24,015 nt of DNA from a virus. Lineage: Duplodnaviria > Heunggongvirae > Uroviricota > Caudoviricetes. The DNA lies in the IMG/VR virus record IMGVR_UViG_2563366887_000004. The stretch is one strand, 5' to 3'. A program made the translations under genes and the position numbers. How positions within the stretch are numbered: position 1 is the stretch's first letter; each line of letters begins with the position of its first letter. Shown in pieces: positions 4,481-24,015 of the stretch. The notes under the pieces are model-generated. The model worked only from the letters and a program-made list of their open reading frames with translations. It had not been told where the DNA came from and made no database searches.

Positions 4481-4987
4481 TATCAGTTCATCCAGCGCGG
4501 CTGCTTTGTTCATGGCTTTGATGATATCCCGTTTCAGGAAATCAACATGTCGGTTTTCCAGTTCCGGAAAACGCCGCTGCACCGACAGGGGGATCCCGTC
4601 GAGAATACTGGCAATTTCACCTGCGATCCGCGACAGCACGAAAGTACAGAATGCGGTTTCCACCACTTCAGCGGAGTCTCTGGCATTTTTCAGCTCCTGT
4701 GCGTCGGCCTGCGCACGCGTAAGTCGATGGCGTTCGTACTCAATAGTCCCTGGCTGGAGATCTGTCTCGCTGGCCTGCCGCAGTTCTTCAACTTCCCGGC
4801 GCAGCTTTTCGTTCTCAATTTCAGCATCCCTTTCGGCATACCATTTTATGACGGCGGCAGAATCATAAAGCACCTCATTACCCTTGCCACCGCCTCGCAG
4901 AACGGGCATTCCCTGTTCCTGCCAGTTCTGAATGGTACGGATACTCGCACCGAAAATGTCAGCCAGCTGCTTTTTGTTGACTTCCAT
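4442..4987 (-). CDS. nohA: terminase small subunit Nu1 homolog; C-terminal tail replaced at a deletion junction
   Basis: 181-aa ORF MEVNKKQLADIFGASIRTIQNWQEQGMPVLRGG... appears near-identical to lambda Nu1 (from memory) up to ...AALDELI, then diverges (TGRTLTVTRAAR) where the sequence continues into a J fragment. No terminase large subunit follows. Confidence 0.85.
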   Translation of the reverse strand: MEVNKKQLADIFGASIRTIQNWQEQGMPVLRGGGKGNEVLYDSAAVIKWYAERDAEIENEKLRREVEELRQASETDLQPGTIEYERHRLTRAQADAQELKNARDSAEVVETAFCTFVLSRIAGEIASILDGIPLSVQRRFPELENRHVDFLKRDIIKAMNKAAALDELITGRTLTVTRAAR

Positions 4988-5200
4988 TGTTCATTCCACG
5001 GACAAAAACAGAGAAAGGAAACGACAAAGGCCAAAAAGCCCGCTTTCAGCACCTGTCGTTTCCTTTCTTTTCAGGGGGTATTTTAAATAAAAACATTAAG
5101 TTACGACGAAGAAGAACGGAAACACCTTAAACCGGAAAATTTTCATAAATAGCGAAAACCCGCGAGGTCGCCGCCCCGTAACCTGTCGGATCACCGGAAA
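4988..5200 (-). other. lambda-type cos region: cosB (inverted R-site repeats) and cosN with the 12-nt cohesive-end sequence GGGCGGCGACCT
   Basis: Minus strand at 5176..5165 reads GGGCGGCGACCT, the known lambda cohesive end. Between cosN and the Nu1 start, inverted copies of AGGAAACGACAG-like R elements occur (about 5013-5066). Position immediately upstream of Nu1 is canonical. Confidence 0.7.
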
Positions 5201-5375
5201 GGACCCGTAAAGTGATAATGATTATCATCTACATATCACAACGTGCGTGGAGGCCATCAAACCACGTCAAATAATCAATTATGACGCAGGTATCGTATTA
5301 ATTGATCTGCATCAACTTAACGTAAAAACAACTTCAGACAATACAAATCAGCGACACTGAATACGGGGCAACCTC

Positions 5376-5609
5376 ATGTCAACGAAGAACAGAACCCGCA
5401 GAACAACAACCCGCAACATCCGCTTTCCTAACCAAATGATTGAACAAATTAACATCGCTCTTGAGCAAAAAGGGTCCGGGAATTTCTCAGCCTGGGTCAT
5501 TGAAGCCTGCCGCCGGAGACTGTGCTCAGAAAAAAGAGTTTCTTCTGAAGCAAACAAAGAAAAGAGTGACATTACTGAATTGCTCAGAAAACAGGTCAGA
5601 CCAGATTGA
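5376..5609 (+). CDS. ynfO: small prophage protein YnfO-like (77 aa)
   Basis: 77-aa ORF at the Qin-equivalent position between cos and ydfO; assignment from recalled gene order, not from a recognised domain. Confidence 0.55.
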   Translation: MSTKNRTRRTTTRNIRFPNQMIEQINIALEQKGSGNFSAWVIEACRRRLCSEKRVSSEANKEKSDITELLRKQVRPD

Positions 5610-5666
5610 AGCAATTTAGATAATCGTGCAGACTACGCCCCCTCATATCACATGGAAGGTTTATCT

Positions 5667-6077
5667 ATGGATCAGGTAGTCATTTTTAAACAAATATTTG
5701 ATAAAGTTCGAAACGATTTAAACTATCAATGGTTTTATTCTGAGCTAAAACGTCACAATGTCTCACATTACATTTACTATTTAGCCACAGAGAATGTTCA
5801 TATTGTATTAAAAAATGATAATACAGTGTTATTAAAGGGCCTAAAAAACATTGTGTCTGTCAAATTTTCAAAGGATAGGCATCTTATAGAAACGACCTCT
5901 AATAAGCTGAAATCCAGAGAGATCACATTTCAGGAATACAGAAGAAACCTTGCTAAAGCAGGAGTTTTTCGGTGGGTTACAAATATCCACGAACAAAAAA
6001 GATATTACTATACCTTTGATAATTCATTACTATTTACTGAAAGCATCCAGAAAACTACACAGATCTTACCACGCTAA
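5667..6077 (+). CDS. ydfO: DUF1398-family prophage protein YdfO
   Basis: ORF 5652..6077; the start at 5667 (MDQVVIFKQ...) is preferred because GGAAGG lies about 8 nt upstream; 136 aa. Confidence 0.65.
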
Positions 6078-6228
6078 ACCATAACGTCCGGCTTCTCTCA
6101 CTCCTGAGCCGGACTGCATTGGTTTAATAAAAACCATCAACAATTGTGATTTAGATATTCGGAACCATTCAAATATAACAAAACCCCGTAAAAACGAGGT
6201 TTATGGATAAATTTTATTATTGAATACA

Positions 6229-6402
6229 TCAGATTAAATTAATCTTGACATCATAGCTTTCAAGACCCGTCATTTTTTCCCGTGCGGTAAACTGAATACT
6301 GGTAACTTCTTTCCCGGTCTTTTTCTTAAGTTCAATAATTTTTTTTGTTATATATTCAGAAATATCTGCTTCTGCTTTTGTTTTTAAGTTTTCAATATTC
6401 AT
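6229..6402 (-). CDS. gnsB: GnsB (57 aa), GnsA/GnsB family small protein
   Basis: Hand-translated from the minus strand: MNIENLKTKAEADISEYITKKIIELKKKTGKEVTSIQFTAREKMTGLESYDVKINLI, stop TGA at 6231..6229. Missed by the ORF track because it is under 60 aa. Confidence 0.75.
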   Translation of the reverse strand: MNIENLKTKAEADISEYITKKIIELKKKTGKEVTSIQFTAREKMTGLESYDVKINLI

Positions 6403-6573
6403 CATTTCCTCTTTTAGTCTGTTATGACTTTCCAGTTACACAGTAAGTCGATTATATGGTGCAAACGTGTAAAAGATAAGATGAAACATCGCAATAATCA
6501 ACATACGATAGTCTAAATTTTACACAAACAGACAAAGAGAATTTTCCTGAATTATCAATGCAATAGCATCAAA

Positions 6574-6846
6574 TCAACTCAAGAGCCTTATTGCTGCTTC
6601 CAGAATTTCTTCTGAAGTAACATGTCGATCCGCGGCTACATAAATGACTTTATGATCTCCGGTCAGAGATGGAAACCCTGCGGCCATTACAGTAAGGTGT
6701 GTTTTTTCGCCATTTGGATATTCACGCATGATGGTGTTAACTCCAGTCATCGCTGGCACTACCACTGCTGGTTCAGAGTTAAAAAAAACTATGATTTTTT
6801 TCATGATGTTACCGTAGTATGTGAGTATCCATCGAATAGACACCAA
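6574..6846 (-). CDS. hypothetical prophage protein (YnfN-position ORF); true start uncertain (6846 or internal Met at 6804)
   Basis: 90-aa ORF with protein-like composition between gnsB and cspI; internal start MKKIIVFF would give 76 aa. No recognisable domain. Confidence 0.4.
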   Translation of the reverse strand: MVSIRWILTYYGNIMKKIIVFFNSEPAVVVPAMTGVNTIMREYPNGEKTHLTVMAAGFPSLTGDHKVIYVAADRHVTSEEILEAAIRLLS

Positions 6847-7075
6847 GCAAAAAAGCTCCCGAAGGAGCCTTCATTTTCACTTTTTTAAATCCAACGACAG
6901 ACGGCTGGCATTTAAGTATTGTGAAATATTATCAAATGTAATCATCATTGATTTACAAAAGATACATTTTGCCCCGAAAGGATTCATGTCAGAAACATCA
7001 AAAGATGATGTTCTATACTGGGAACCATGACAACACGGGCATCTAAAGTGAATATGGTTTGTAATATTGTCTACC

Positions 7076-12501: not shown

Positions 12502-12789
12502 TCAGAGAATGCGTTTGACCGCCTCGCTATATACTTCCGAGCGTTCTCTTTTCCCAACAGAAATCACGAAAACGACAACTTTCTCGTCTATAACCTGGTA
12601 TACAAGGCGATAGCCTGAAGACCGGAGCTTAATCTTGTAACAATCAGGCATACCACGGAGCTTGTTTGCTTCAATCCGGGGTGACTCAAGTACTTCAACC
12701 AGCTTCTTTTTCAACTGTTCACGTACCGTCGAGCCCAGCTTTCGCCATTCCTTTAGTGCCCGCTCGTCAAAATCCAGAAAATACGCCAT
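12502..12789 (-). CDS. relE: RelE mRNA-interferase toxin
   Basis: 95 aa MAYFLDFDERALKEWRKLGSTVREQLKKKL...; recognised RelE sequence; start overlaps the relB stop (ATGA). Confidence 0.95.
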   Translation of the reverse strand: MAYFLDFDERALKEWRKLGSTVREQLKKKLVEVLESPRIEANKLRGMPDCYKIKLRSSGYRLVYQVIDEKVVVFVISVGKRERSEVYSEAVKRIL

Positions 12790-13028
12790 CAGAGTTCATC
12801 CAGCGTCACACGTACTGGCTTAGGATTACGAAGCCGTTCTTTCACTATCTCCACAAGTTCAGCATCTTCATCACTCAGGAGTGTCTGTTTGAACGGCAAG
12901 CGTTCATTGTCAGCGATATACTCGAGCATGAGACGAAGCGCTTCAGAAGGAGTTACACCCATTTTTTCAAGCGCGGCGTAAGAACGCGCTTTAAGTTCAT
13001 CGTCAATACGCAGGTTAATGCTACCCAT
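12789..13028 (-). CDS. relB: RelB antitoxin
   Basis: 79 aa MGSINLRIDDELKARSYAALEKMGVTPSEALRLMLEY...; recognised RelB sequence. Confidence 0.95.
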   Translation of the reverse strand: MGSINLRIDDELKARSYAALEKMGVTPSEALRLMLEYIADNERLPFKQTLLSDEDAELVEIVKERLRNPKPVRVTLDEL

Positions 13029-13039
13029 GTCTTACACCT

Positions 13040-14329: not shown

Positions 14330-15643
14330 TCAATCTTTTTTATCGGGATCAGGCTTCTTTTTAGGTAACTTCGGGGGCTTAACTTGCTGATGACTTTGCG
14401 TTCGGCGCGTAAGCCAGGGATGGTCAGCTTTAGGTTTAACATAGTATTTTGAGCGTAAATCAATACGGGCATTATCCACTCGTTCATGGACACTCTTTTC
14501 ATCATCCAGTGGTATAGGCTCCGGGCCATCAACATACTTTTCCCAGCCCAGCGCTTTCCCGTCATACAGAACGTTAATTTCACCGTCAAAGTTCTCGCAT
14601 ACAGTAACAACCGAATGCCTAAGTCGATATCCCCGGCCCTCACTGCGTACCTGAAACGCACTGCTTTTGTACTGGAAAGTGAGATTTTTAGACAGAACGC
14701 GCTTCGCCTGTAGGCTGAAGATATAACCCAGTTCCTCTTCAGAATGGTGCACATCAAGATGAGCATTATCAGTAGTACGAGGCGACGTAGCGAACCGGTT
14801 GTTATAGGCTTCAATAAAGGTCGGCAACCATGCATTTGCTGTTTCAATATCACTGATATTCTGAAGCCGCATTTCTTTGACCAGCCTGTCCTGTAGTGTC
14901 TGATTGGCGCGCTCTACCCGCCCTTTTGCCTGCGGGCTGTTGGCATGGATTGGCTCGATGCCCAGTGTCTTTATCGCACGAGTGAACTGGGTCAGCTCAC
15001 CTTCCCGCTCTGGGTTATTTACCCTGAATATACTGTGTCTATCAGAGTAGAGAGCGAGCGGTACGCCATGATCATTAAGGTAACCCCGGAGGGTTTCCAT
15101 GTAAGCCCGGGTTGTTTCAGCAGGCACAAAACGCAACGCCATCAACGCACTGGTGGCATCATCAATGAAAACGATCAGTGTACATCTGGGGCCTCGATTT
15201 TCAAACCAGTCATGAGGTGAGCCATCAATCTGGATCAGTTCACCGTAAGATGGTCGTCGCATGCGGCGTTGATATATACGGGCAATTTTACGACGGCGTT
15301 CACGCCATAACCCCTCTTCTATCATCCACTTTCTGAGAGTTTCAACGGATAAAGATAAACCGTGTATCTCGCGCAATTTTTCGCACGCAAACGTAGGTCC
15401 AAAATCAGCGTAACGGCCTTTGAGGAGTGAAATTACTGTTGCTCTGAATTCAGTAGAAAAGGAATTATTAGGACGCTTTCCACGTCGGTGGGAAACCAGA
15501 CCAGAAGGCCCTTCATTTCTATACCGTTGCACCAGACGTTTAACCTGCCGAATAGAAATGCCAATGCGTGCCGCAGCTTGTTCCTGAATAATCTGAAGTC
15601 GGTGGAGTTCCTTATGACTCATCGTAACAGTCTCTTTGATCAT
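14330..15643 (-). CDS. DDE-type transposase/integrase with N-terminal HTH and rve-like catalytic core (IS481/ISNCY-like; family not resolved)
   Basis: 437 aa; HTH-like N-terminus (IGISIRQVKRLVQRY) and catalytic-core motifs (IQIDGSPHDW, VFIDDATSA, YSDRHSIF, KGRVERANQTL); strong SD GGGGGA 7 nt upstream of the ATG. Element termini not resolved. Confidence 0.8.
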   Translation of the reverse strand: MIKETVTMSHKELHRLQIIQEQAAARIGISIRQVKRLVQRYRNEGPSGLVSHRRGKRPNNSFSTEFRATVISLLKGRYADFGPTFACEKLREIHGLSLSVETLRKWMIEEGLWRERRRKIARIYQRRMRRPSYGELIQIDGSPHDWFENRGPRCTLIVFIDDATSALMALRFVPAETTRAYMETLRGYLNDHGVPLALYSDRHSIFRVNNPEREGELTQFTRAIKTLGIEPIHANSPQAKGRVERANQTLQDRLVKEMRLQNISDIETANAWLPTFIEAYNNRFATSPRTTDNAHLDVHHSEEELGYIFSLQAKRVLSKNLTFQYKSSAFQVRSEGRGYRLRHSVVTVCENFDGEINVLYDGKALGWEKYVDGPEPIPLDDEKSVHERVDNARIDLRSKYYVKPKADHPWLTRRTQSHQQVKPPKLPKKKPDPDKKD

Positions 15644-16920: not shown

Positions 16921-17309
16921 AGTTAAAGAAAATTTCTTATGCTCCGTCATGAATTTCCTCAGGTGTTGCGTCATCGTCCACTTCGAATACATCCTCAAAA
17001 TCTCCACCAGCTATTCCCGTTTCAATAATAATTTTGAACTTTCGCATTTCACTACCGCCCTTTCGGGCGGCCTCCTGATGTTCTGAGGGTGCAGAAATCC
17101 ATCCGGTTAAGGATTAAATTTTATTTACAGAACTGAATTTAATTATTCAGATATACGTATCTGTAGCCTTACGAATCTACTCACTGGATGCCTCTTTCAT
17201 AAAAATAATCCAGTGGGTTTTATCGTTTTTTCCCTGTTCGTTGACAGATAACAGGTTTTCTGTCTGTCAGTGCCAGAATCTGGCTTACCGGTATTTGCGT
17301 TTCATTCCA

Positions 17310-17666
17310 TTAAAAAATCAGAACGCCGTGCGGCCTCAACACCCGAAAGGCTTCTTTAAATCTCTGTCGCGAATCATCACGCCAGGCATCTTTATTCAGC
17401 CGTCCATATTTCTTTCCCATCCAGGCGTTATCACCAACACTCTCAAGATGCGGAGGGTCTAATACAACCATCGAAAAAGATGCGTCTGCAAATGATAATG
17501 CACGAAAATCTGCGATAATGTCAGGGCTGATAATCAAGCGTCTCCCATTGCGTAATGTGTATCCTTCTTTTCTGATATCGCTGAATATCGCCCGTTCGTC
17601 AGACTTATCGAACCAGAACATGCGGCTGCCACAGCACATATCAAGAATGGTTGCCGGTGCACTCAC
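17310..17666 (-). CDS. small amino-methyltransferase, likely phage DNA N6-adenine (Dam-like) methylase; possibly truncated
   Basis: 118 aa with SAM-binding motif I-like ILDMCCGS and a DPPH (NPPY-type) motif about 60 residues later, ending ...LRPHGVLIF; GTG start overlaps the stop of the upstream ORF (translational coupling). Confidence 0.55.
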   Translation of the reverse strand: MSAPATILDMCCGSRMFWFDKSDERAIFSDIRKEGYTLRNGRRLIISPDIIADFRALSFADASFSMVVLDPPHLESVGDNAWMGKKYGRLNKDAWRDDSRQRFKEAFRVLRPHGVLIF

Positions 17667-17929
17667 TGCGCCACGTCCTGAAAATTACCCTGATAGAAAG
17701 CCAGTATGCGCTGCATAACTTCGCTCTTCCGGCACTCGCGACAGATTATGTTTAGGCGACTGTCGTAGCGACGTATTTCTCCGTCAGGTGATGACCAGAT
17801 AAGGTCCGGATCAACCACAGCAGGTTTCTTCACCTTTGCCCTCGAGAGTTTTTTGCGGGCGTTTTGCCAGTCCTTACGCGCCTGTTCAGAGGGGAATAAC
17901 CCGTATCCGGAGCTTAAGTTGCACGCCAT
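17663..17929 (-). CDS. hypothetical protein (88 aa) upstream of and coupled to the methyltransferase
   Basis: ATG-initiated ORF with protein-like basic/charged composition and a CxxC pair (CRECRK); its stop overlaps the methyltransferase GTG start. Its 5' end overlaps the divergent exonuclease-gene frame. Confidence 0.35.
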   Translation of the reverse strand: MACNLSSGYGLFPSEQARKDWQNARKKLSRAKVKKPAVVDPDLIWSSPDGEIRRYDSRLNIICRECRKSEVMQRILAFYQGNFQDVAQ

Positions 17930-18283
17930 TGGGTGGGTTAAGCATAAATGTATTCCTGGTGCTAAATGGCCCGAAATTCAGGCAGAGATGCGCATCTGGA
18001 AAAAACGTCGCGAAGGTGAACGCAAGGAAACCGGAAAATACACGTCTGTTGTTGATCTCGCCCGCGCCAGAGCCAATCAACAGTACACTGAAAATTCAAC
18101 AGGAAAAATCAGCCCGGTCATTGCTGCCATTCATCGCGAATACAAGCAGACATGGAAAACACTGGATGACGAACTGGCCTACGCTCTCTGGCCTAGTGAT
18201 GTGGATGCCGGAAACATTGACGGCAGCATCCATCGCTGGGCAAAAAAAGAAGTTATCGACAACGACCGCGAAGACTGGAAGCG
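17853..18283 (+). pseudogene. 5' part of an insertion-disrupted exonuclease-family gene (upstream of the IS600-like insertion)
   Basis: Open frame from 17853 (TTG) with a candidate ATG at 17988; the frame runs into the IS terminal repeat, which supplies the last five codons (EVYWQ*). Continues in-frame at 20771 once the IS and one copy of the GCG duplication are removed. Confidence 0.6.
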
Positions 18284-18326
18284 TGAGGTGTACTGGCAAT
18301 AGCGGACACTACCATTTGTTCTTTTT

Positions 18327-19145
18327 TTAAGCAGCCATCTGATGATATTTTTCCCTGAAGGCTGCCGGGGAGATATTCCCCAGACGAGAGTGACGACGCT
18401 GACGATTGTAGAAAATCTCAATGTATTCCCGTATTACTGAGATGGCTTCATCCCGGTTATTAAAACGATAGTGGCTCAGGCTCTCATTTTTCAGCGTTCC
18501 CCAGAAGCTTTCCATCGGAGCGTTGTCGTAACAGTTACCTTTACGCGACATTGATGTTTTCAGACCAAACTGCTCCTGTATGACCCGGTAATCGTATGCG
18601 CAGTACTGTGAACCTCGATCAGAGTGGTGGATTAGCCCGGCAGGTGGGCGCTGGCTCCTGAGCGCCATAAACAGGGCTTTACCTGTCAGCTCTTTTGTCA
18701 TGCACTCTCCCATGGCGTAGCCGACAATTTCGCACGTATAAACATCTTTGATGCCAGCGAGGTACAACCATCCCTCCTGTGTGGCAACATACGTCAGGTC
18801 CGCCACCCAGACCTGATTTGGTGCTGTAGGAGCGAACGTCTGGTTCAGCAGATTTGGCGCAACTGGCAGATTGTGGTTCGAGTTCGTAGTCGCTCTGAAC
18901 TTGCGTTTCTGCTTACAGCGTAGCCTTAGCTCCTTACGAAGACGTGCCAGTCGGTCACGACCAACGATGATGCCATTCTCTGCCAGCTCCGTCTGGAGCC
19001 GCCGGGTTCCATATGTTTCGCGAGTGCGGATATGTGCCACCTTAATCTCCAGTTTTAGCCGCTCATCACTTTGTTTTCTGTCTGAGGGTTCATGCTGTAC
19101 CCAGTTGTAATAACCGCTCCTGGATACACCAAATACCTGACACAT
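18327..19145 (-). CDS. IS3-family (IS600-like) transposase OrfB, DDE catalytic domain
   Basis: 272-aa ORF MCQVFGVSRSGYYNWVQHEP... with DDE motifs (WVADLTYV, HHSDRGSQY, NCYDNAPMESFWGTLK); the frame overlaps the 3' end of orfA as expected for a -1 frameshift fusion. Confidence 0.85.
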   Translation of the reverse strand: MCQVFGVSRSGYYNWVQHEPSDRKQSDERLKLEIKVAHIRTRETYGTRRLQTELAENGIIVGRDRLARLRKELRLRCKQKRKFRATTNSNHNLPVAPNLLNQTFAPTAPNQVWVADLTYVATQEGWLYLAGIKDVYTCEIVGYAMGECMTKELTGKALFMALRSQRPPAGLIHHSDRGSQYCAYDYRVIQEQFGLKTSMSRKGNCYDNAPMESFWGTLKNESLSHYRFNNRDEAISVIREYIEIFYNRQRRHSRLGNISPAAFREKYHQMAA

Positions 19146-19222
19146 CGCTTCAATGGGAAATTGTTGTCGCCATTGTTCGATTAACGCGTATTTTTCAGCG
19201 ACTCCTGTGCAAAATACGCTGT

Positions 19223-20443
19223 TGTAGATTCAATCTGTCAATGCAACACCCCTTTCAATTATCTCTTTCGGTGTTTTGAACTTCAGTGTCTTTCTCGGTC
19301 TGTTGTTTAGCTGAGCAGCAACCAGATCTAGTTCATGTTGAGTATATTGGGCAAGACATGTCTTTTTAGGAAAGTACTGCCGAATTAGCCCATTTGTGTT
19401 CTCATTTGTTCCCCGCTGCCAAGGACTCTGAGGATCGCAGAAGTAAACTTTAACGCCGGTGCTGACAGTAAATTCTAGATGTCTGGCCAGTTCCATTCCT
19501 CTGTCCCATGTCAGTGATTTTCTGAGTTCTGACGGTAAACTCAGGAATTTGTCGGTAAGAGCCTGATTTACTGAGACAGAATCTTTGCCCCTGAGTCTAA
19601 GGATGATCGTATAACGTGATTTTCGGTCTACAAGTGTGGCTATATGAGAGTTTTTTGTACCTGAGACTAAATCGCCCTCCCAATGTCCCAGAGAGCGTCT
19701 GTTATCGATATTTCGGGAACGTTCGTGAATTGGTGTTCCGTTCACTATGTTAATCGTACCTCTTTCGCCTTTGCGGGTATGACGCCTGCCATGGCGAAGG
19801 CTATGCGACCGTCGCAGATGCTGTATATTCAGGTGGTGTAGCGCTTCACGGCTACGAAAGTACAGCGTTTTATAAATTGTCTCAGGTGATATTCGCAGCG
19901 TTTTTTGACGTGGTTTTGTTCGCCTTAACCATCCTGATATTTGCTCTGGAGACCATTTCATCTCCAGCTTTTCCAGAACAAGCTTTCGCAATGGTAAATT
20001 TTGATCCAGTAAGCACGGTTTTGGCCTTTTCGCCATTCTGTTGGCTCGGTTATTAGCATCAACAGCTTTGTAATAGCGTCTGCCCCGATTACGCTGAACT
20101 TCACGTGAGATCGTCGAAGGACTGCGATTCAGCGCAGTAGCTATCGCACGAATGCTCATTTTGGCTGACAAACCAGCTCGTATCTCCTCGCGCTCAGACA
20201 GTGTCAGGTGAGCTACAGCCCGCTTACGCTCATGGGGTTTTATGCCGCCAGTATCCCTTAACATAGTGAAGATCGTTCCGGGTTTTGAACCCAGGATATT
20301 CGCTATTTCACTGAAGCCTGTTCCGTTCTTCCATAGTTCAAAAACAGAGGCTTTTTCCTCTGCTGTAAATGTTCGTCTCATTCAAAAAACCTCCGCAACC
20401 CCATGTTTTCACATAACTGTTGCGTTGACCAATTGAATCTACA
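19223..20443 (-). mobile_element. IS30, complete (1221 bp) with terminal inverted repeats and 2-bp target-site duplication GT
   Basis: Ends TGTAGATTCAAT... (19223) and ...ATTGAATCTACA (20443); the 20443 end on the minus strand reads TGTAGATTCAATTGGTCAACGCAACAGTTATGTG, matching the IS30 IR as I recall it; length exactly 1221 bp; GT at 19221-19222 and 20444-20445. Confidence 0.9.
19230..20381 (-). CDS. insI: IS30 transposase (383 aa)
   Basis: 383-aa ORF MRRTFTAEEKASVFELWKNGTGFSEIANILG... recognised as IS30 transposase; lies within the IS30 boundaries. Confidence 0.95.
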   Translation of the reverse strand: MRRTFTAEEKASVFELWKNGTGFSEIANILGSKPGTIFTMLRDTGGIKPHERKRAVAHLTLSEREEIRAGLSAKMSIRAIATALNRSPSTISREVQRNRGRRYYKAVDANNRANRMAKRPKPCLLDQNLPLRKLVLEKLEMKWSPEQISGWLRRTKPRQKTLRISPETIYKTLYFRSREALHHLNIQHLRRSHSLRHGRRHTRKGERGTINIVNGTPIHERSRNIDNRRSLGHWEGDLVSGTKNSHIATLVDRKSRYTIILRLRGKDSVSVNQALTDKFLSLPSELRKSLTWDRGMELARHLEFTVSTGVKVYFCDPQSPWQRGTNENTNGLIRQYFPKKTCLAQYTQHELDLVAAQLNNRPRKTLKFKTPKEIIERGVALTD

Positions 20444-20770
20444 GTTGCTTTTTTTAATATATCTCGCTCAAGGCGAGCTTCATTTAACGCCTTACGCAGT
20501 TGCAGAATTTCAGATTCCAGTTCAGCCACCGTGCGGGAACCAGGAGTACCGAGCCCTTTTCTGGCGGCGGTAACCCATTGTCCTAAAGTGCCTTCAGGAA
20601 GAGATAATCGGGAAGCGCCTTCACTGATCGAAAGTTGATTTTCAAGAACCGTTCTGACAGCTTCGGCTTTGAACTCTTTAGAGTAACGTTGGGTTTTTCT
20701 GCTCATTATTAGCTCCTTCTGATGCCATTCTATTTCAGGAAGGAGTGTCCGTTAAACTCAGGCTACCTCA

Positions 20771-22376
20771 GCGTATCTCGGCATCAATGCGCAAACAGCC
20801 TGATGCCCTTCGCTACGACCGCCAAACTATTTTTGGCCTTGTCCGTGAGCGTCCGATCGACATTCACAAAGATCCCGTAGCACTGAACAAATATATCTGC
20901 GAATACCTGACGACAAAGGGCGTGTTTGAGAATGAAGAAACAGACCTGGGCACTGTTGATGTTCTCCAGTCATCAGAAACACAAACTGATGCAGTGGAAA
21001 CTGAGGTATCTGATATCCCAAAAAATGAAACCGCGCCGGAAGCTGAACCATCTGTAGAGCGTGAGGGGCCGTTCTATTTCCTCTTCGCAGATAAGGACGG
21101 AGAAAAATACGGTCGCGCAAACAAACTCTCTGGTCTGGATAAGGCACTGGCTGCTGGCGCCACTGAAATCACAAAAGAAGAATATTTTGCCCGAAAAAAT
21201 GGCACATACACGGGCTTACCGCAAAATGTAGATACCGCTGAAGATTCAGAACAACCAGAGCCGATAAAAGTTACCGCTGACGAAGTAAACAAAATTATGC
21301 AGGCAGCCAATATCAGCCAGCCTGACGCCGATAAGTTGCTTGCTGCATCACGTGGTGAATTTGTTGAAGGGATTAGTGACCCGAATGATCCGAAATGGGT
21401 TAAGGGGCTCCAGACCCGCGATTCTGTGAACCAGAACCAGCATGAATCGGAACGGAACTACCAAAAAGCGGAACAAAACAGTCCAAATGCGTTACAAAAC
21501 GAGCCAGAAACGAAACAGCCTGAACCAGTAGCGCAACAGGAAGTGGAAAAAGTCTGCACCGCCTGCGGTCAGACCGGCGGCGGCAACTGCCCTGATTGTG
21601 GCGCGGTGATGGGCGACGCAACATACCAAGAAACATTCGATGAAGAGTATCAGGTTGAAGTTCAGGAAGATGATCCGGAGGAAATGGAAGGCGCTGAACA
21701 TCCACACAAGGAGAACACTGGCGGCAATCAGCATCACAATAGCGATAATGAAACTGGCGAGACGGCAGATCACCCAATTAAGGTGAACGGTCATCACGAA
21801 ATCACATCCACCAGCAGGACGTGTGACCATCTAATGATCGACCTTGAAACCATGGGAAAAAATCCTGATGCCCCGATCATCTCAATAGGTGCAATATTTT
21901 TCGATCCGCAAACCGGAGATATGGGACCGGAATTTAGTAAGACTATCGATCTGGAAACTGCTGGCGGAGTCATTGATCGGGACACCATTAAATGGTGGCT
22001 TAAGCAATCACGCGAAGCGCAATCTGCCATTATGACCGATGAAATCCCGTTAGATGATGCACTGTTACAATTGCGAGAATTTATCGACGAAAACTCCGGT
22101 GAATTTTTTGTTCAGGTTTGGGGAAATGGAGCCAACTTCGACAACACGATTTTGCGCCGTTCATACGAACGGCAGGGGATCCCCTGCCCGTGGCGTTACT
22201 ACAACGATCGCGATGTACGCACAATCGTTGAGCTGGGGAAAGCCATAGACTTCGATGCCAGAACGGCTATTCCATTCGAAGGTGAGCGCCATAATGCACT
22301 TGATGACGCCCGTTACCAGGCAAAATACGTTTCAGTTATCTGGCAAAAACTGATCCCGAGTCAGGCTGATTCTTAA
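20771..22376 (+). pseudogene. 3' part of the insertion-disrupted gene: acidic linker, C4 zinc ribbon and C-terminal DEDDh 3'-5' exonuclease domain
   Basis: In frame with 17853..18283 across the IS. Contains CTACGQTGGGNCPDCG (zinc ribbon) and exonuclease motifs Exo I MIDLETMG, Exo II WGNGANFDNTIL, Exo III HNALDDARY. The ORF-track start at 20745 is a GTG inside the IS terminal repeat and is artefactual. Confidence 0.65.
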
Positions 22377-22448
22377 TGTTCAACTGTCGCCGGTTGTGAC
22401 TGGTATTCTGCAACCGGCGCTCGTCTGATGTAAGAGATAAAGAAATCG

Positions 22449-22700
22449 ATGAGCGAAGTAATCATGATTGTCTCTCCCGGCAAATGGGTATCCGAAGAGC
22501 AGTTAATTGCGCTGAAAGGAATAAAAAAAGGTACGTTAAAAAAGGCCCGGGAAAAATCGTTTATGGAAGGAAGGGAATATAAGCATGTCGCTCATGACGG
22601 TATGCCATGGGATAACAGTCCATGCTTTTACAACCTGGAAGAAATTGATCGCTGGATTGAGCGCCAGGCATCAGCGAGACCAAGACGTCATCTTACTTGA
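22449..22700 (+). CDS. excisionase-like small protein (putative Xis) upstream of the integrase
   Basis: 83-aa ORF immediately upstream of, and co-oriented with, the integrase gene. Assignment by position and size only. Confidence 0.5.
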   Translation: MSEVIMIVSPGKWVSEEQLIALKGIKKGTLKKAREKSFMEGREYKHVAHDGMPWDNSPCFYNLEEIDRWIERQASARPRRHLT

Positions 22701-22719
22701 CTAAAAGCCACACTAACTA

Positions 22720-24015
22720 ATGAGAGAAGTTGAAATGAAATATCCGACAGGCGTGGAAAACCATGGAGGGAAATTACGTATCTGGTTTGTTTATAAAGAC
22801 GTAAGAGTCAGGGAAAATCTGGGGGTTCCTGACACAGCAAAAAACAGGCGCGTTGCAGGTGAACTACGCTCCTCTGTTTGTTACGCAATAAAAACTGGTG
22901 TTTTCGACTATGCAAAACAGTTTCCCTCCTCACGCAATCTGGAAAAATTTGGTGAGGCCCGACAAGATTTAACCATAAAAGAACTGGCTGAAAAATTTCT
23001 GGCACTGAAAGAAACTGAAGTCGCCAAAACATCACTCAACACATACCGTGCCGTCATCAAAAATATCCTGAGCATAATCGGTGAAAAAAATCTTGCCTCA
23101 TCGATTAATAAAGAAAAATTACTGGAGGTTCGTAAAGAGTTACTGACTGGATACCAGATCCCCAAAAGTAACTATATTGTTACACAACCAGGGAGATCGG
23201 CTGTAACTGTAAATAATTACATGACAAATCTTAACGCCGTGTTCCAGTTTGGTGTTGATAACGGTTACCTGGCAGATAATCCGTTTAAGGGGATCTCGCC
23301 ATTAAAGGAATCAAGAACCATTCCGGATCCTCTTTCGCGGGAAGAATTTATCCGTCTTATCGATGCGTGCAGAAATCAGCAAGCAAAAAATTTATGGTGT
23401 GTTTCTGTTTATACTGGAGTTCGCCCTGGTGAGCTGTGTGCACTTGGATGGGAGGACATAGATCTGAAAAATGGAACAATGATGATCAGGAGAAATTTAG
23501 CAAAAGACCGTTTCACGGTACCAAAAACACAGGCGGGAACCAATCGGGTCATTCATCTTATTAAGCCAGCAATCGACGCTCTCCGGAGTCAGATGACATT
23601 AACGAGACTGAGCAAAGAGCATATCATTGATGTTCACCTCAGAGAGTATGGCAGAACAGAAAAACAAAAATGCACCTTTGTTTTTCAACCTGAAGTGTCA
23701 GCGAGAGTAAAAAATTATGGTGACCATTTTACCGTTGACTCAATAAGGCAGATGTGGGACGCAGCGATAAAACGTGCCGGACTCCGCCATCGAAAATCAT
23801 ATCAGTCGAGACATACTTATGCCTGCTGGTCGCTGACAGCTGGTGCTAACCCGGCATTTATAGCAAACCAGATGGGCCATGCAGATGCGCAAATGGTATT
23901 TCAGGTATACGGAAAATGGATGTCTGAAAACAATAATGCACAGGTAGCTTTGTTAAATACACAGTTAAGCGAGTTTGCCCCAACCATGCCCCATAACGAA
24001 GCAATGAAAAATTAA
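22720..24015 (+). CDS. intQ: tyrosine recombinase, phage integrase family (lambda Int-like)
   Basis: 431-aa ORF ending at the window edge; C-terminal catalytic region with SRHTYA and GHADAQMVFQVYGKW (putative His and Tyr nucleophile). An alternative start at 22735 (MKYPTGVENHGG...) has a better SD. The gene symbol is an inference from the Qin-like context. Confidence 0.85.
   Translation: MREVEMKYPTGVENHGGKLRIWFVYKDVRVRENLGVPDTAKNRRVAGELRSSVCYAIKTGVFDYAKQFPSSRNLEKFGEARQDLTIKELAEKFLALKETEVAKTSLNTYRAVIKNILSIIGEKNLASSINKEKLLEVRKELLTGYQIPKSNYIVTQPGRSAVTVNNYMTNLNAVFQFGVDNGYLADNPFKGISPLKESRTIPDPLSREEFIRLIDACRNQQAKNLWCVSVYTGVRPGELCALGWEDIDLKNGTMMIRRNLAKDRFTVPKTQAGTNRVIHLIKPAIDALRSQMTLTRLSKEHIIDVHLREYGRTEKQKCTFVFQPEVSARVKNYGDHFTVDSIRQMWDAAIKRAGLRHRKSYQSRHTYACWSLTAGANPAFIANQMGHADAQMVFQVYGKWMSENNNAQVALLNTQLSEFAPTMPHNEAMKN

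Follow-up and report, generated by a model that had tools for sequence, protein, structure and literature searches.

The damaged gene upstream of the integrase in the window (the whole 24,015-nucleotide stretch of DNA analysed here) is very probably a dead ydfE remnant, wrecked by three events, whose intact form is an 823-aa protein that joins a RecE-like scaffold to a DEDDh exonuclease. ydfE is a catalogued prophage gene, consisting of a RecE-like scaffold and a DnaQ/DexA-type 3'-5' exonuclease, and is damaged twice in the window; it closes the early-left (dicB) operon in a Qin-type lambdoid prophage of E. coli. Orthology with K-12 ydfE is shown by 253 identical residues out of 256 and by the same neighbours, ydfD and intQ, and the gene sits where its K-12 counterpart does, upstream of the Qin xis/int genes at rspB. 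Once repaired in silico, the window sequence is 86-92% identical to the 823-aa proteins and colinear with them over its whole retained length, residues 164-823; Tritos gp27, its intact counterpart, shows 97% identity over these residues. The in-silico repair proposed in an earlier sequence-only reading was correct, but the window gene is incomplete and not new, the family being already catalogued. The papers found mention ydfE solely as a dicB-operon pseudogene, and a literature search on Rv2179c in phages returned nothing relevant; a 2025 paper in Genome Research described DnaQ-like 3'-5' nucleases in the Rec modules of lambdoid phages (PMC12315714).

The remnant consists of two parts on the plus strand. 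The first (17904..18283) begins at residue 164, at YPELKLHAIGW in the 823-aa homologue P0001, where the helical YdfE_C region starts; what had been taken for an N-terminal domain is thus an internal helical stretch of the 823-aa protein. The second (20774..22376) joins it in frame, runs to a TAA stop and is approximately 91% identical to P0001. According to the AF2 domain map the helical region is completed in this second part, which also contains the disordered acidic linkers, a small beta-alpha domain, the zinc ribbon and the DEDDh domain. That the two halves form one gene, as had been proposed, is borne out by other E. coli chromosomes, in which the uninterrupted junction is present at 100% identity. 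The gene indeed adjoins xis-int on the same strand, in the early-left position, and is followed by an excisionase gene of the DUF1233 family (22449..22700, plus strand) and the tyrosine integrase gene of a Qin-type prophage (22720..24015, plus strand), which runs to the window edge, with the rspB side of the attachment site beyond.

The 5' end of the gene is missing. Two blastn segments against the PhiR42_1 locus (L004) overlap at 17903..17912, a 10 bp microhomology that marks a deletion junction, and approximately 4.6 kb of PhiR42_1 is absent, comprising O, cII, dicC, dicA, ydfABC, dicF, dicB, ydfD and ydfE codons 1-163. Window positions 17000-17912 match L004 3519-4431 at 99.8% and include, at 17663..17912 on the minus strand, the 3' remnant of a DUF977 (LygF-like) gene that lost its N-terminal part in the deletion and is annotated by NCBI as 'DUF977 family protein, missing N-terminus'. 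Homology to ydfE starts at 17903/17904, which corresponds to residue Y164 of the 823-aa protein. The start previously assigned at 17853 is spurious: its first 17 codons (17853-17902) are the antisense of the DUF977 gene remnant. Because homology begins only at Y164 and this start is spurious, the gene is 5'-truncated, and what had been described as a complete, reconstructable gene of about 675 aa lacks the 163 N-terminal codons of the 823-aa ydfE. The YdfE_N domain and the start codon are absent, and since codons 1-163 are deleted, the window copy is a fragment of a YdfE family member, not an intact member. The IS-free copy, too, is a pseudogene 'missing N-terminus' in the NCBI annotation. In junction-specific queries, 90 of 5426 complete E. 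coli genomes spanned the deletion junction. The first event would have been a 4.6-kb microhomology-mediated deletion that fused codon 164 head-to-head with the DUF977 gene remnant, leaving ydfE without its promoter, start codon and YdfE_N domain and the prophage without its entire immunity/dicB region.

The retained frame is split by an IS600 element (IS3 family), itself interrupted by IS30, at 18284..20770 on the minus strand, with terminal inverted repeats at 18284-18310 and 20744-20770 and a 3 bp target-site duplication, GCG, on the left (18281-18283) and right (20771-20773). By length arithmetic IS600's own sequence comes to 1264 bp once the nested IS30 is taken out of the insert. The latter (19223..20443, minus strand, 1221 bp) carries a transposase ORF at 19230..20381 and is flanked by a 2-bp duplication, GT, at 19221-19222 and 20444-20445; both elements show canonical lengths, inverted repeats and duplications (3 bp for IS600, 2 bp for IS30). 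In matching genomes the IS600 copy is annotated as a pseudogene, 'IS3-like element IS600 family transposase', and the nested element as IS30, and junction-specific queries found the IS600 junction in 45 complete E. coli genomes. The frame proposed earlier, 17853..18283 plus 20771..22376, was right in that the flanks join in frame, but the exact join is from 18283 to 20774, and the proposed one contains an extra codon because both copies of the GCG duplication were kept. The second event would thus be the insertion of IS600 with duplication of GCG, and the third the insertion of IS30 into IS600. Given three wrecking events, no functional protein is expected from the window copy.

It could nevertheless be argued that the window copy is partly functional, with a 543-aa ORF (20745..22376) that uses a GTG start in the IS600 end yielding, from an IS-driven transcript, a truncated protein with the DEDDh domain. 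The ORF is indeed uninterrupted and includes a complete DEDDh domain, and IS3-family ends can drive outward transcription. However, the IS600 genes lie on the opposite strand, NCBI calls the gene a pseudogene in every genome among the matches listed, and a promoter scan of 17400-22800 found no promoter-like site anywhere on the plus strand, including upstream of the window gene, and fewer sites overall than in shuffled sequence. We consider such partial function highly improbable and, with no plus-strand site in the promoter scan, rejected residual expression.

Intact genes were found in phages Tritos, HannyBb and PhiR42_1, so the search for intact orthologues proposed in the sequence-only reading succeeded in the form of full-length 823-aa relatives. 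These carry the Pfam domains YdfE_N, YdfE_C and Rv2179c-like. The alpha/beta YdfE_N domain comes first and the helical YdfE_C domain second; next come disordered acidic linkers that flank a small beta-alpha domain, and a C4 zinc ribbon precedes the C-terminal DEDDh domain. PHROG 2082 ('exonuclease') matches P0001 end to end (1-823 of 823). The acidity reported for the linker is confirmed by residue counts, which give 16 D/E and 3 K/R over 61 aa, and 20 D/E and 3 K/R over 71 aa, and the linkers are predicted to be disordered. The C4 zinc ribbon, CTACGQTGGGNCPDC (21555..21599, plus strand), which RecE and Shigella phage 75/02 Stx gp06 also conserve, has the spacing CxxC-N7-CxxC rather than the CxxC-N9-CxxC given before. 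The YdfE family is common in E. coli prophages and viable phages and is routinely mislabelled 'exonuclease VIII'.

The C-terminal domain (21828..22343, plus strand) was correctly recognised as a DEDDh (DnaQ-like, Rv2179c/DexA-type) 3'-5' exonuclease. PF16473 (Rv2179c-like) matches residues 496-667 of the repaired protein with an E-value of 1.9e-67 (226.8 bits against a gathering cut-off of 27), and the motifs DLET, NGANFDNTIL and HNALDDA are present. All five catalytic residues (D, E, D, H, D) align with D7, E9, D119, H186 and D191 of T4 DexA and are invariant in our alignment. Structure prediction, which the sequence-only reading had called for, agrees: in an AF2 model of the intact homologue P0001, not of the window copy, residues 640-820 adopt an RNase-H-like DEDD fold with block-mean pLDDT mostly above 90, and Foldseek finds their best matches in DexA, RNase T and Orn. 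The closest solved structure both by sequence (phmmer E 1.5e-6) and by fold (Foldseek E 8e-10) is T4 DexA, 8kel, a 3'-5' DNA exonuclease according to PMC12315337. From sequence and model, 3'-5' exonuclease activity is predicted for the domain.

Intact YdfE would be a metal-dependent 3'-to-5' exonuclease that acts on DNA 3' ends during lytic growth and works without a phage annealing protein. RNA has to be considered as a substrate because the Pfam domain is named for an exoribonuclease ('3'-5' exoribonuclease Rv2179c-like'), the NCBI gene name is '3'-5' exoribonuclease domain-containing protein', and the fold is similar to that of RNase T, Orn and REXO2 as well. The intact protein might then degrade host or phage RNA, nanoRNA or second messengers, for example in counter-defence, and be unrelated to DNA ends. 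We regard this as unlikely, since the nearest solved relative by both measures is a DNA exonuclease, the DEDDh domain sits on a RecE-type scaffold in the place otherwise taken by a PD-(D/E)XK DNA exonuclease domain, the gene lies within the DNA-transaction part of the early-left operon, and PADLOC returned no match to known defence or counter-defence models.

The kinship with DexA also raises the question of a defence role, as E. coli EcD, a DexA homologue, cleaves 5hmC DNA and protects against T4 (PMC12315337) and the window domain is related to DexA and has its catalytic residues intact. An EcD-like prophage nuclease, of the 'HREX' kind, would act on superinfecting T-even phages by destroying their cytosine-modified DNA. 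However, the DexA 5hmC-recognition residues W152 and D169 are not conserved, being Tyr and Ala in the window domain (the alignment near D169 is less certain), and EcD appears to be short and stand-alone rather than an 823-aa fusion, because its A78 aligns with DexA D90 in the numbering used in PMC12315337. In addition, the K-12 gene belongs to the DicA-repressed dicB operon (PMC11430063), so ydfE should be silent in the lysogen. A nuclease of this kind is very unlikely, and a defence role was rejected on the lack of a PADLOC match and of conserved 5hmC-recognition residues.

In a species-level census, recT follows 11 of 11 PD-(D/E)XK versions and none of 5 DEDDh versions, a contrast that counts more observations than are independent, since nearly identical Rac copies make up many of the census loci. 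The same split was seen in a separate comparison of loci. Searched by tblastn with Rac RecT and two other RecT proteins, with Bet, Exo and Gam of lambda and with the nuclease domain of RecE, the complete Tritos and HannyBb genomes and all loci with a DEDDh version gave no homologue. The window has no recT gene either. The recT/bet partner that had been sought elsewhere is thus lacking from the complete phages with an intact gene and from the vicinity of every DEDDh version. Together with the 5' truncation and the catalogued family, which refute completeness and novelty, this leaves almost no room for reading the gene as a complete and novel RecE replacement of about 675 aa with a recT/bet-like partner encoded elsewhere, a proposal favoured by the position next to xis-int and by partial homology to RecE. 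According to PMC12315714, Tritos is the prototype of a nuclease-only Rec module, lacking both an annealing and an anti-RecBCD protein and having many Chi sites; by our analysis its nuclease is of the DEDDh type. We counted 9 Chi sites on the top strand of Tritos and 2 on the bottom strand, against approximately 0.86 expected per strand. Intact YdfE would probably trim ends for the host RecBCD-Chi pathway rather than make 3' tails for RecT-type annealing, a link to RecBCD and Chi suggested by co-occurrence in a handful of related phages.

The relation to Rac RecE lies in the central part of the protein. Residues 262-625 of P0001 align with RecE 278-591 (E 4e-63), with a nearly identical ribbon, and in the window the segment shared with Rac recE, comprising linker, zinc ribbon and acidic tail, is 21329..21771 (plus strand), with 78% nucleotide identity to K-12 recE over 443 bp. 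The sequence-only reading had left open a match to RecE: the linker and zinc ribbon are homologous to RecE 278-591, but the N-terminal Exonuc_VIII domain is absent. PF12684 (PD-(D/E)XK) matches neither P0001 nor the repaired protein, whereas RecE matches at 4.1e-28; PF06630 (Exonuc_VIII) is absent from P0001, whereas RecE matches at 6e-98; and the NCBIfam equivalog PRK09709 gives a partial match over residues 246-625, at 286 bits against a cut-off of 1269. Membership of RecE/exonuclease VIII was rejected on these three results and the lack of recT, the central region being partial homology. The suspicion that the architecture differs from Rac RecE was well founded, since the RecE nuclease is PD-(D/E)XK (Pfam PF12684) and that of YdfE is DEDDh. 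Next to the homologous linker and ribbon, it is the nuclease domain alone that is swapped relative to RecE, from PD-(D/E)XK to DEDDh. All four pairings of N-terminal type (YdfE_N or RecE-type) with nuclease type (PD-(D/E)XK or DEDDh) exist, and one hybrid with RecE_N and DEDDh shows 93.6% DNA identity to the window from 21351 to 22376. Segment 21329..21771 appears to act as a crossover region between modules.

A tentative and rather doubtful extension is that the RecE-type scaffold, made up of the N-terminal and helical domains, the acidic linkers and the zinc ribbon, is a nuclease-agnostic delivery platform. Lambdoid phages would exchange its C-terminal cartridge by crossover within the conserved linker and ribbon, between PD-(D/E)XK with RecT and DEDDh without an annealing protein. 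The PD-(D/E)XK 5'-3' nuclease with RecT would then be a self-sufficient annealing strategy, and the DEDDh enzyme would blunt or trim 3' ends such that host RecBCD could load and then use the many Chi sites of the phage. The central part of RecE that YdfE shares is termed a region of unknown function in reviews and recombineering studies, yet it enhances linear-linear recombination (PMC11611040). If the platform existed, a function would have to be assigned to the N-terminal two-thirds of RecE, regarded as 'dispensable', and it would be testable via the DEDDh-bearing cousins. The window itself matters little, as a pseudogene already flagged by standard annotation in a well-known cryptic prophage. 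The recT split, always with PD-(D/E)XK and never with DEDDh versions, offers a concrete handle on the scaffold's role and on DNA-end processing in lambdoid phages without annealing and anti-RecBCD proteins.

One of the closest known counterparts is K-12 ydfE (b1577, a Qin pseudogene), which is the same gene at the same site, between ydfD and xis/int next to rspB, with 100% DNA identity to the window over the common part, 17903-18181. K-12 retains residues 1-256 and is cut by IS2, whereas the window retains 164-823 and is cut by IS600::IS30; neither is intact. T4 DexA (PDB 8kel/8ken) shares all five catalytic residues with the window domain but is a stand-alone 227-aa protein with extra loops, unlike the C-terminal domain of YdfE. 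Rac RecE (exonuclease VIII, 866 aa) is, like YdfE, a large early-left-operon protein with a homologous linker, C4 ribbon and acidic tail, but it combines an Exonuc_VIII N-terminus with a PD-(D/E)XK 5'-3' nuclease and is followed by recT, whereas in the ydfE family YdfE_N is combined with a DEDDh 3'-5' nuclease and recT is missing. Shigella phage 75/02 Stx gp06 (682 aa) shares the central region and zinc ribbon (E 1e-47) but has an Exonuc_VIII N-terminus and no nuclease domain, with gam, recT-like and exo following as genes of their own; it is probably one of the 'RecE-2' proteins described in PMC12315714. The Tritos-type Rec module, whose domain mosaic is not dissected in PMC12315714, is intact in that phage, whereas the window holds only its wreck.

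The window is a stretch of E. coli chromosome with a Qin-type cryptic lambdoid prophage, and its gene order is common to near-identical loci in complete genomes: essD, cspB, cspF, ydfT, ydfU, rem, hokD, relBE, flxA, IS remnants, a methyltransferase, a DUF977 remnant, the ydfE remnant, xis, int and rspB. The gene next to xis is a 5'-truncated pseudogene of ydfE, an already catalogued family. Over its first 256 residues the intact 823-aa homologue shares 99% identity with the K-12 pseudogene ydfE (b1577), which follows dicB and ydfD and is interrupted by IS2 before intQ, and the K-12 gene and the window show 100% DNA identity over the part they share. Intact orthologues, which the sequence-only reading had proposed to search for, are carried by phages with sequenced genomes, namely Tritos, HannyBb, PhiR42_1 and mEp460, where the usual label is 'exonuclease VIII'. 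Intact copies carry the precomputed Pfam annotations YdfE_N, YdfE_C and Rv2179c-like, and PHROG 2082 matches the intact protein end to end. A DnaQ-type nuclease in the early-left slot has already been described (PMC12315714). K-12 ydfE (6079-6999 of its locus, L005) retains residues 1-256 and the window (17904-22376) residues 164-823, jointly the full protein length; the same gene has been wrecked from opposite ends in the two lineages. The toxin-antitoxin pair relBE, together with hokD, and a partial transposase of the ISNCY family were placed at 12502-13030 and 14330-15643 by position relative to the annotated loci L001 and L002.

The insert that had been proposed from the sequence to split the gene was confirmed, with exact boundaries. 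IS600 (IS3 family; 18284-20770, 1264 bp of its own sequence) has IS3-family terminal inverted repeats and a 3-bp GCG direct repeat at both flanks, and IS30 (19223-20443, 1221 bp) is nested within it with a 2-bp duplication (GT); matching genomes annotate the insert alike. Because IS30 interrupts the transposase genes of IS600, the outer element is disabled as well. Joining 18283 to 20774 produced a single open frame as far as the stop at 22376, and a 677-nt query across the repaired junction matched other E. coli chromosomes without interruption and at 100% identity. Both halves therefore belong to one gene, and the in-silico repair was correct. In 992 complete E. coli genomes, IS600 and IS30 sequence covered at least 80% of a 2551-nt query at a single site, whereas the IS600 junction at ydfE was spanned in only 45 of 5426; the nested pair may therefore occur at other loci as well.

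The repaired gene of about 675 aa had been taken as complete, but its full-length relatives have 823 aa, codons 1-163 are deleted, and the first 17 codons assigned to it (17853-17902) are antisense DUF977 sequence. In the alignment with phage PhiR42_1, 17000-17912 corresponds to the 3' portion of a minus-strand DUF977 gene and 17903-18283 to the interior of the 823-aa gene, beginning at residue 164. The two segments share a 10-bp overlap (17903-17912), a microhomology at the deletion junction, and a deletion of approximately 4.6 kb was thus probably mediated by it. Missing relative to PhiR42_1 are O (a replication gene), cII, dicC, dicA, ydfABC, dicF, dicB, ydfD and ydfE codons 1-163. The deletion took the whole immunity region as well as the cell-division inhibitors dicF and dicB, together with ydfD; the toxic dicB operon, kept under DicA repression in K-12 Qin, is gone from this Qin variant. 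Of 5426 complete E. coli genomes, 90 had matches across the deletion junction and 45 across the IS600 junction. The deletion preceded the IS600 insertion. The IS-free copy, too, is marked as a pseudogene 'missing N-terminus' in the NCBI annotation, and a promoter scan of the upstream plus strand found no promoter-like site. Adjoining the DUF977 remnant on the minus strand is an intact 118-aa ORF for a class I SAM-dependent methyltransferase (17310-17666), also present in PhiR42_1.

The C-terminal DEDDh exonuclease recognized from its motifs was borne out by Pfam (Rv2179c-like, E 1.9e-67) and by alignment of five of five catalytic residues with phage T4 DexA, its best match, followed by RNase T and oligoribonucleases. 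T4 DexA is a 3'-5' DNA exonuclease, and EcD, a homologue from E. coli, has been put forward as a defence against T4 (PMC12315337); the window's domain does not conserve the residues reported necessary for 5hmC recognition in DexA. Four regions of the intact protein were modelled confidently by AF2 (1-205, 240-345, 385-435 and 640-820); the linkers between them are strongly acidic, as had been described, and are predicted to be disordered. The C4 zinc ribbon is present, at modest confidence in the model, with the spacing CxxC-N7-CxxC and not the N9 first claimed. No solved relatives were found for the N-terminal domains.

In a census of 20 species-representative loci, retrieved via the conserved segment, recT lay directly downstream in 11 of 11 loci with a PD-(D/E)XK C-terminus and neither recT nor bet lay within 6 kb in the five with a DEDDh C-terminus, although several Rac-type loci are near-identical and these are not 16 independent observations. 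Further loci outside the census showed the same split. The complete Tritos and HannyBb genomes also had no homologues of RecT, Bet, lambda Exo or Gam; the recT/bet-like partner to be looked for beside intact orthologues was found neither there nor at the DEDDh loci. In PMC12315714, Tritos typifies phages that have a nuclease and abundant Chi sites but lack both an annealing protein and an anti-RecBCD protein, and it is listed as the prototype of that class; our own count in Tritos was 9 on the top strand and 2 on the bottom, against an expected ~0.86 per strand. The intact protein is likely a 3'-5' DNA-end exonuclease that would work without a phage annealing protein, and its end processing might feed the host RecBCD-Chi pathway. 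Chi octamers occur three times on the window's minus strand (8253, 17004 and 21808) and not at all on its plus strand (expected ~0.16 per strand); the one at 21808 falls within the exonuclease remnant, and the Chi-rich top strand of Tritos corresponds to the window's minus strand.

Residues 262-625 of the intact protein aligned with residues 278-591 of Rac RecE (E 4e-63), with near-identity over the zinc ribbon and acidic tail and 78% nucleotide identity across 443 bp; the score against the NCBIfam exonuclease VIII equivalog was far under its cut-off. Homologues number roughly 11,800, and a cluster-representative search with Pfam scans found all four combinations of N-terminal and nuclease type: RecE_N with PD-(D/E)XK (Rac RecE), RecE_N with DEDDh (P0123, P0126 and P0136), YdfE_N with DEDDh (the ydfE family) and YdfE_N with PD-(D/E)XK (P0141 and locus L033). 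In the hybrid P0123 (L009 6001-8418, a Rac-like prophage lacking recT), a RecE-type N-terminus (PF06630, 9e-99) precedes a 3' half with 93.6% DNA identity to the Qin-type DEDDh half over window 21351-22376 (stop), so the conserved linker/ribbon segment is where modules cross over. P0123 itself resembles a recent crossover within that segment. A relative in Citrobacter murliniae (L039, ~4975-5970) has YdfE_N-like and helical regions, with no nuclease domain or recT detected with the seeds used, and may represent a further form of the scaffold, either lacking a nuclease or armed in some other way.

RecE-like proteins without a nuclease domain are also noted in PMC12315714, and Shigella phage 75/02 Stx has such a scaffold beside separate gam, recT-like and exo genes. 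The N-terminal region of RecE is a domain of unknown function, yet it boosts linear-linear recombination (reviewed in PMC11611040). Whether the gene matched a RecE-family N-terminal domain had been left undecided: the centre and ribbon are homologous to RecE, and the N-terminus of the intact protein is YdfE_N rather than Exonuc_VIII. The anticipated difference in architecture held, as Rac RecE combines an Exonuc_VIII N-terminal domain with a PD-(D/E)XK C-terminal domain, whereas the ydfE family combines YdfE_N with DEDDh.
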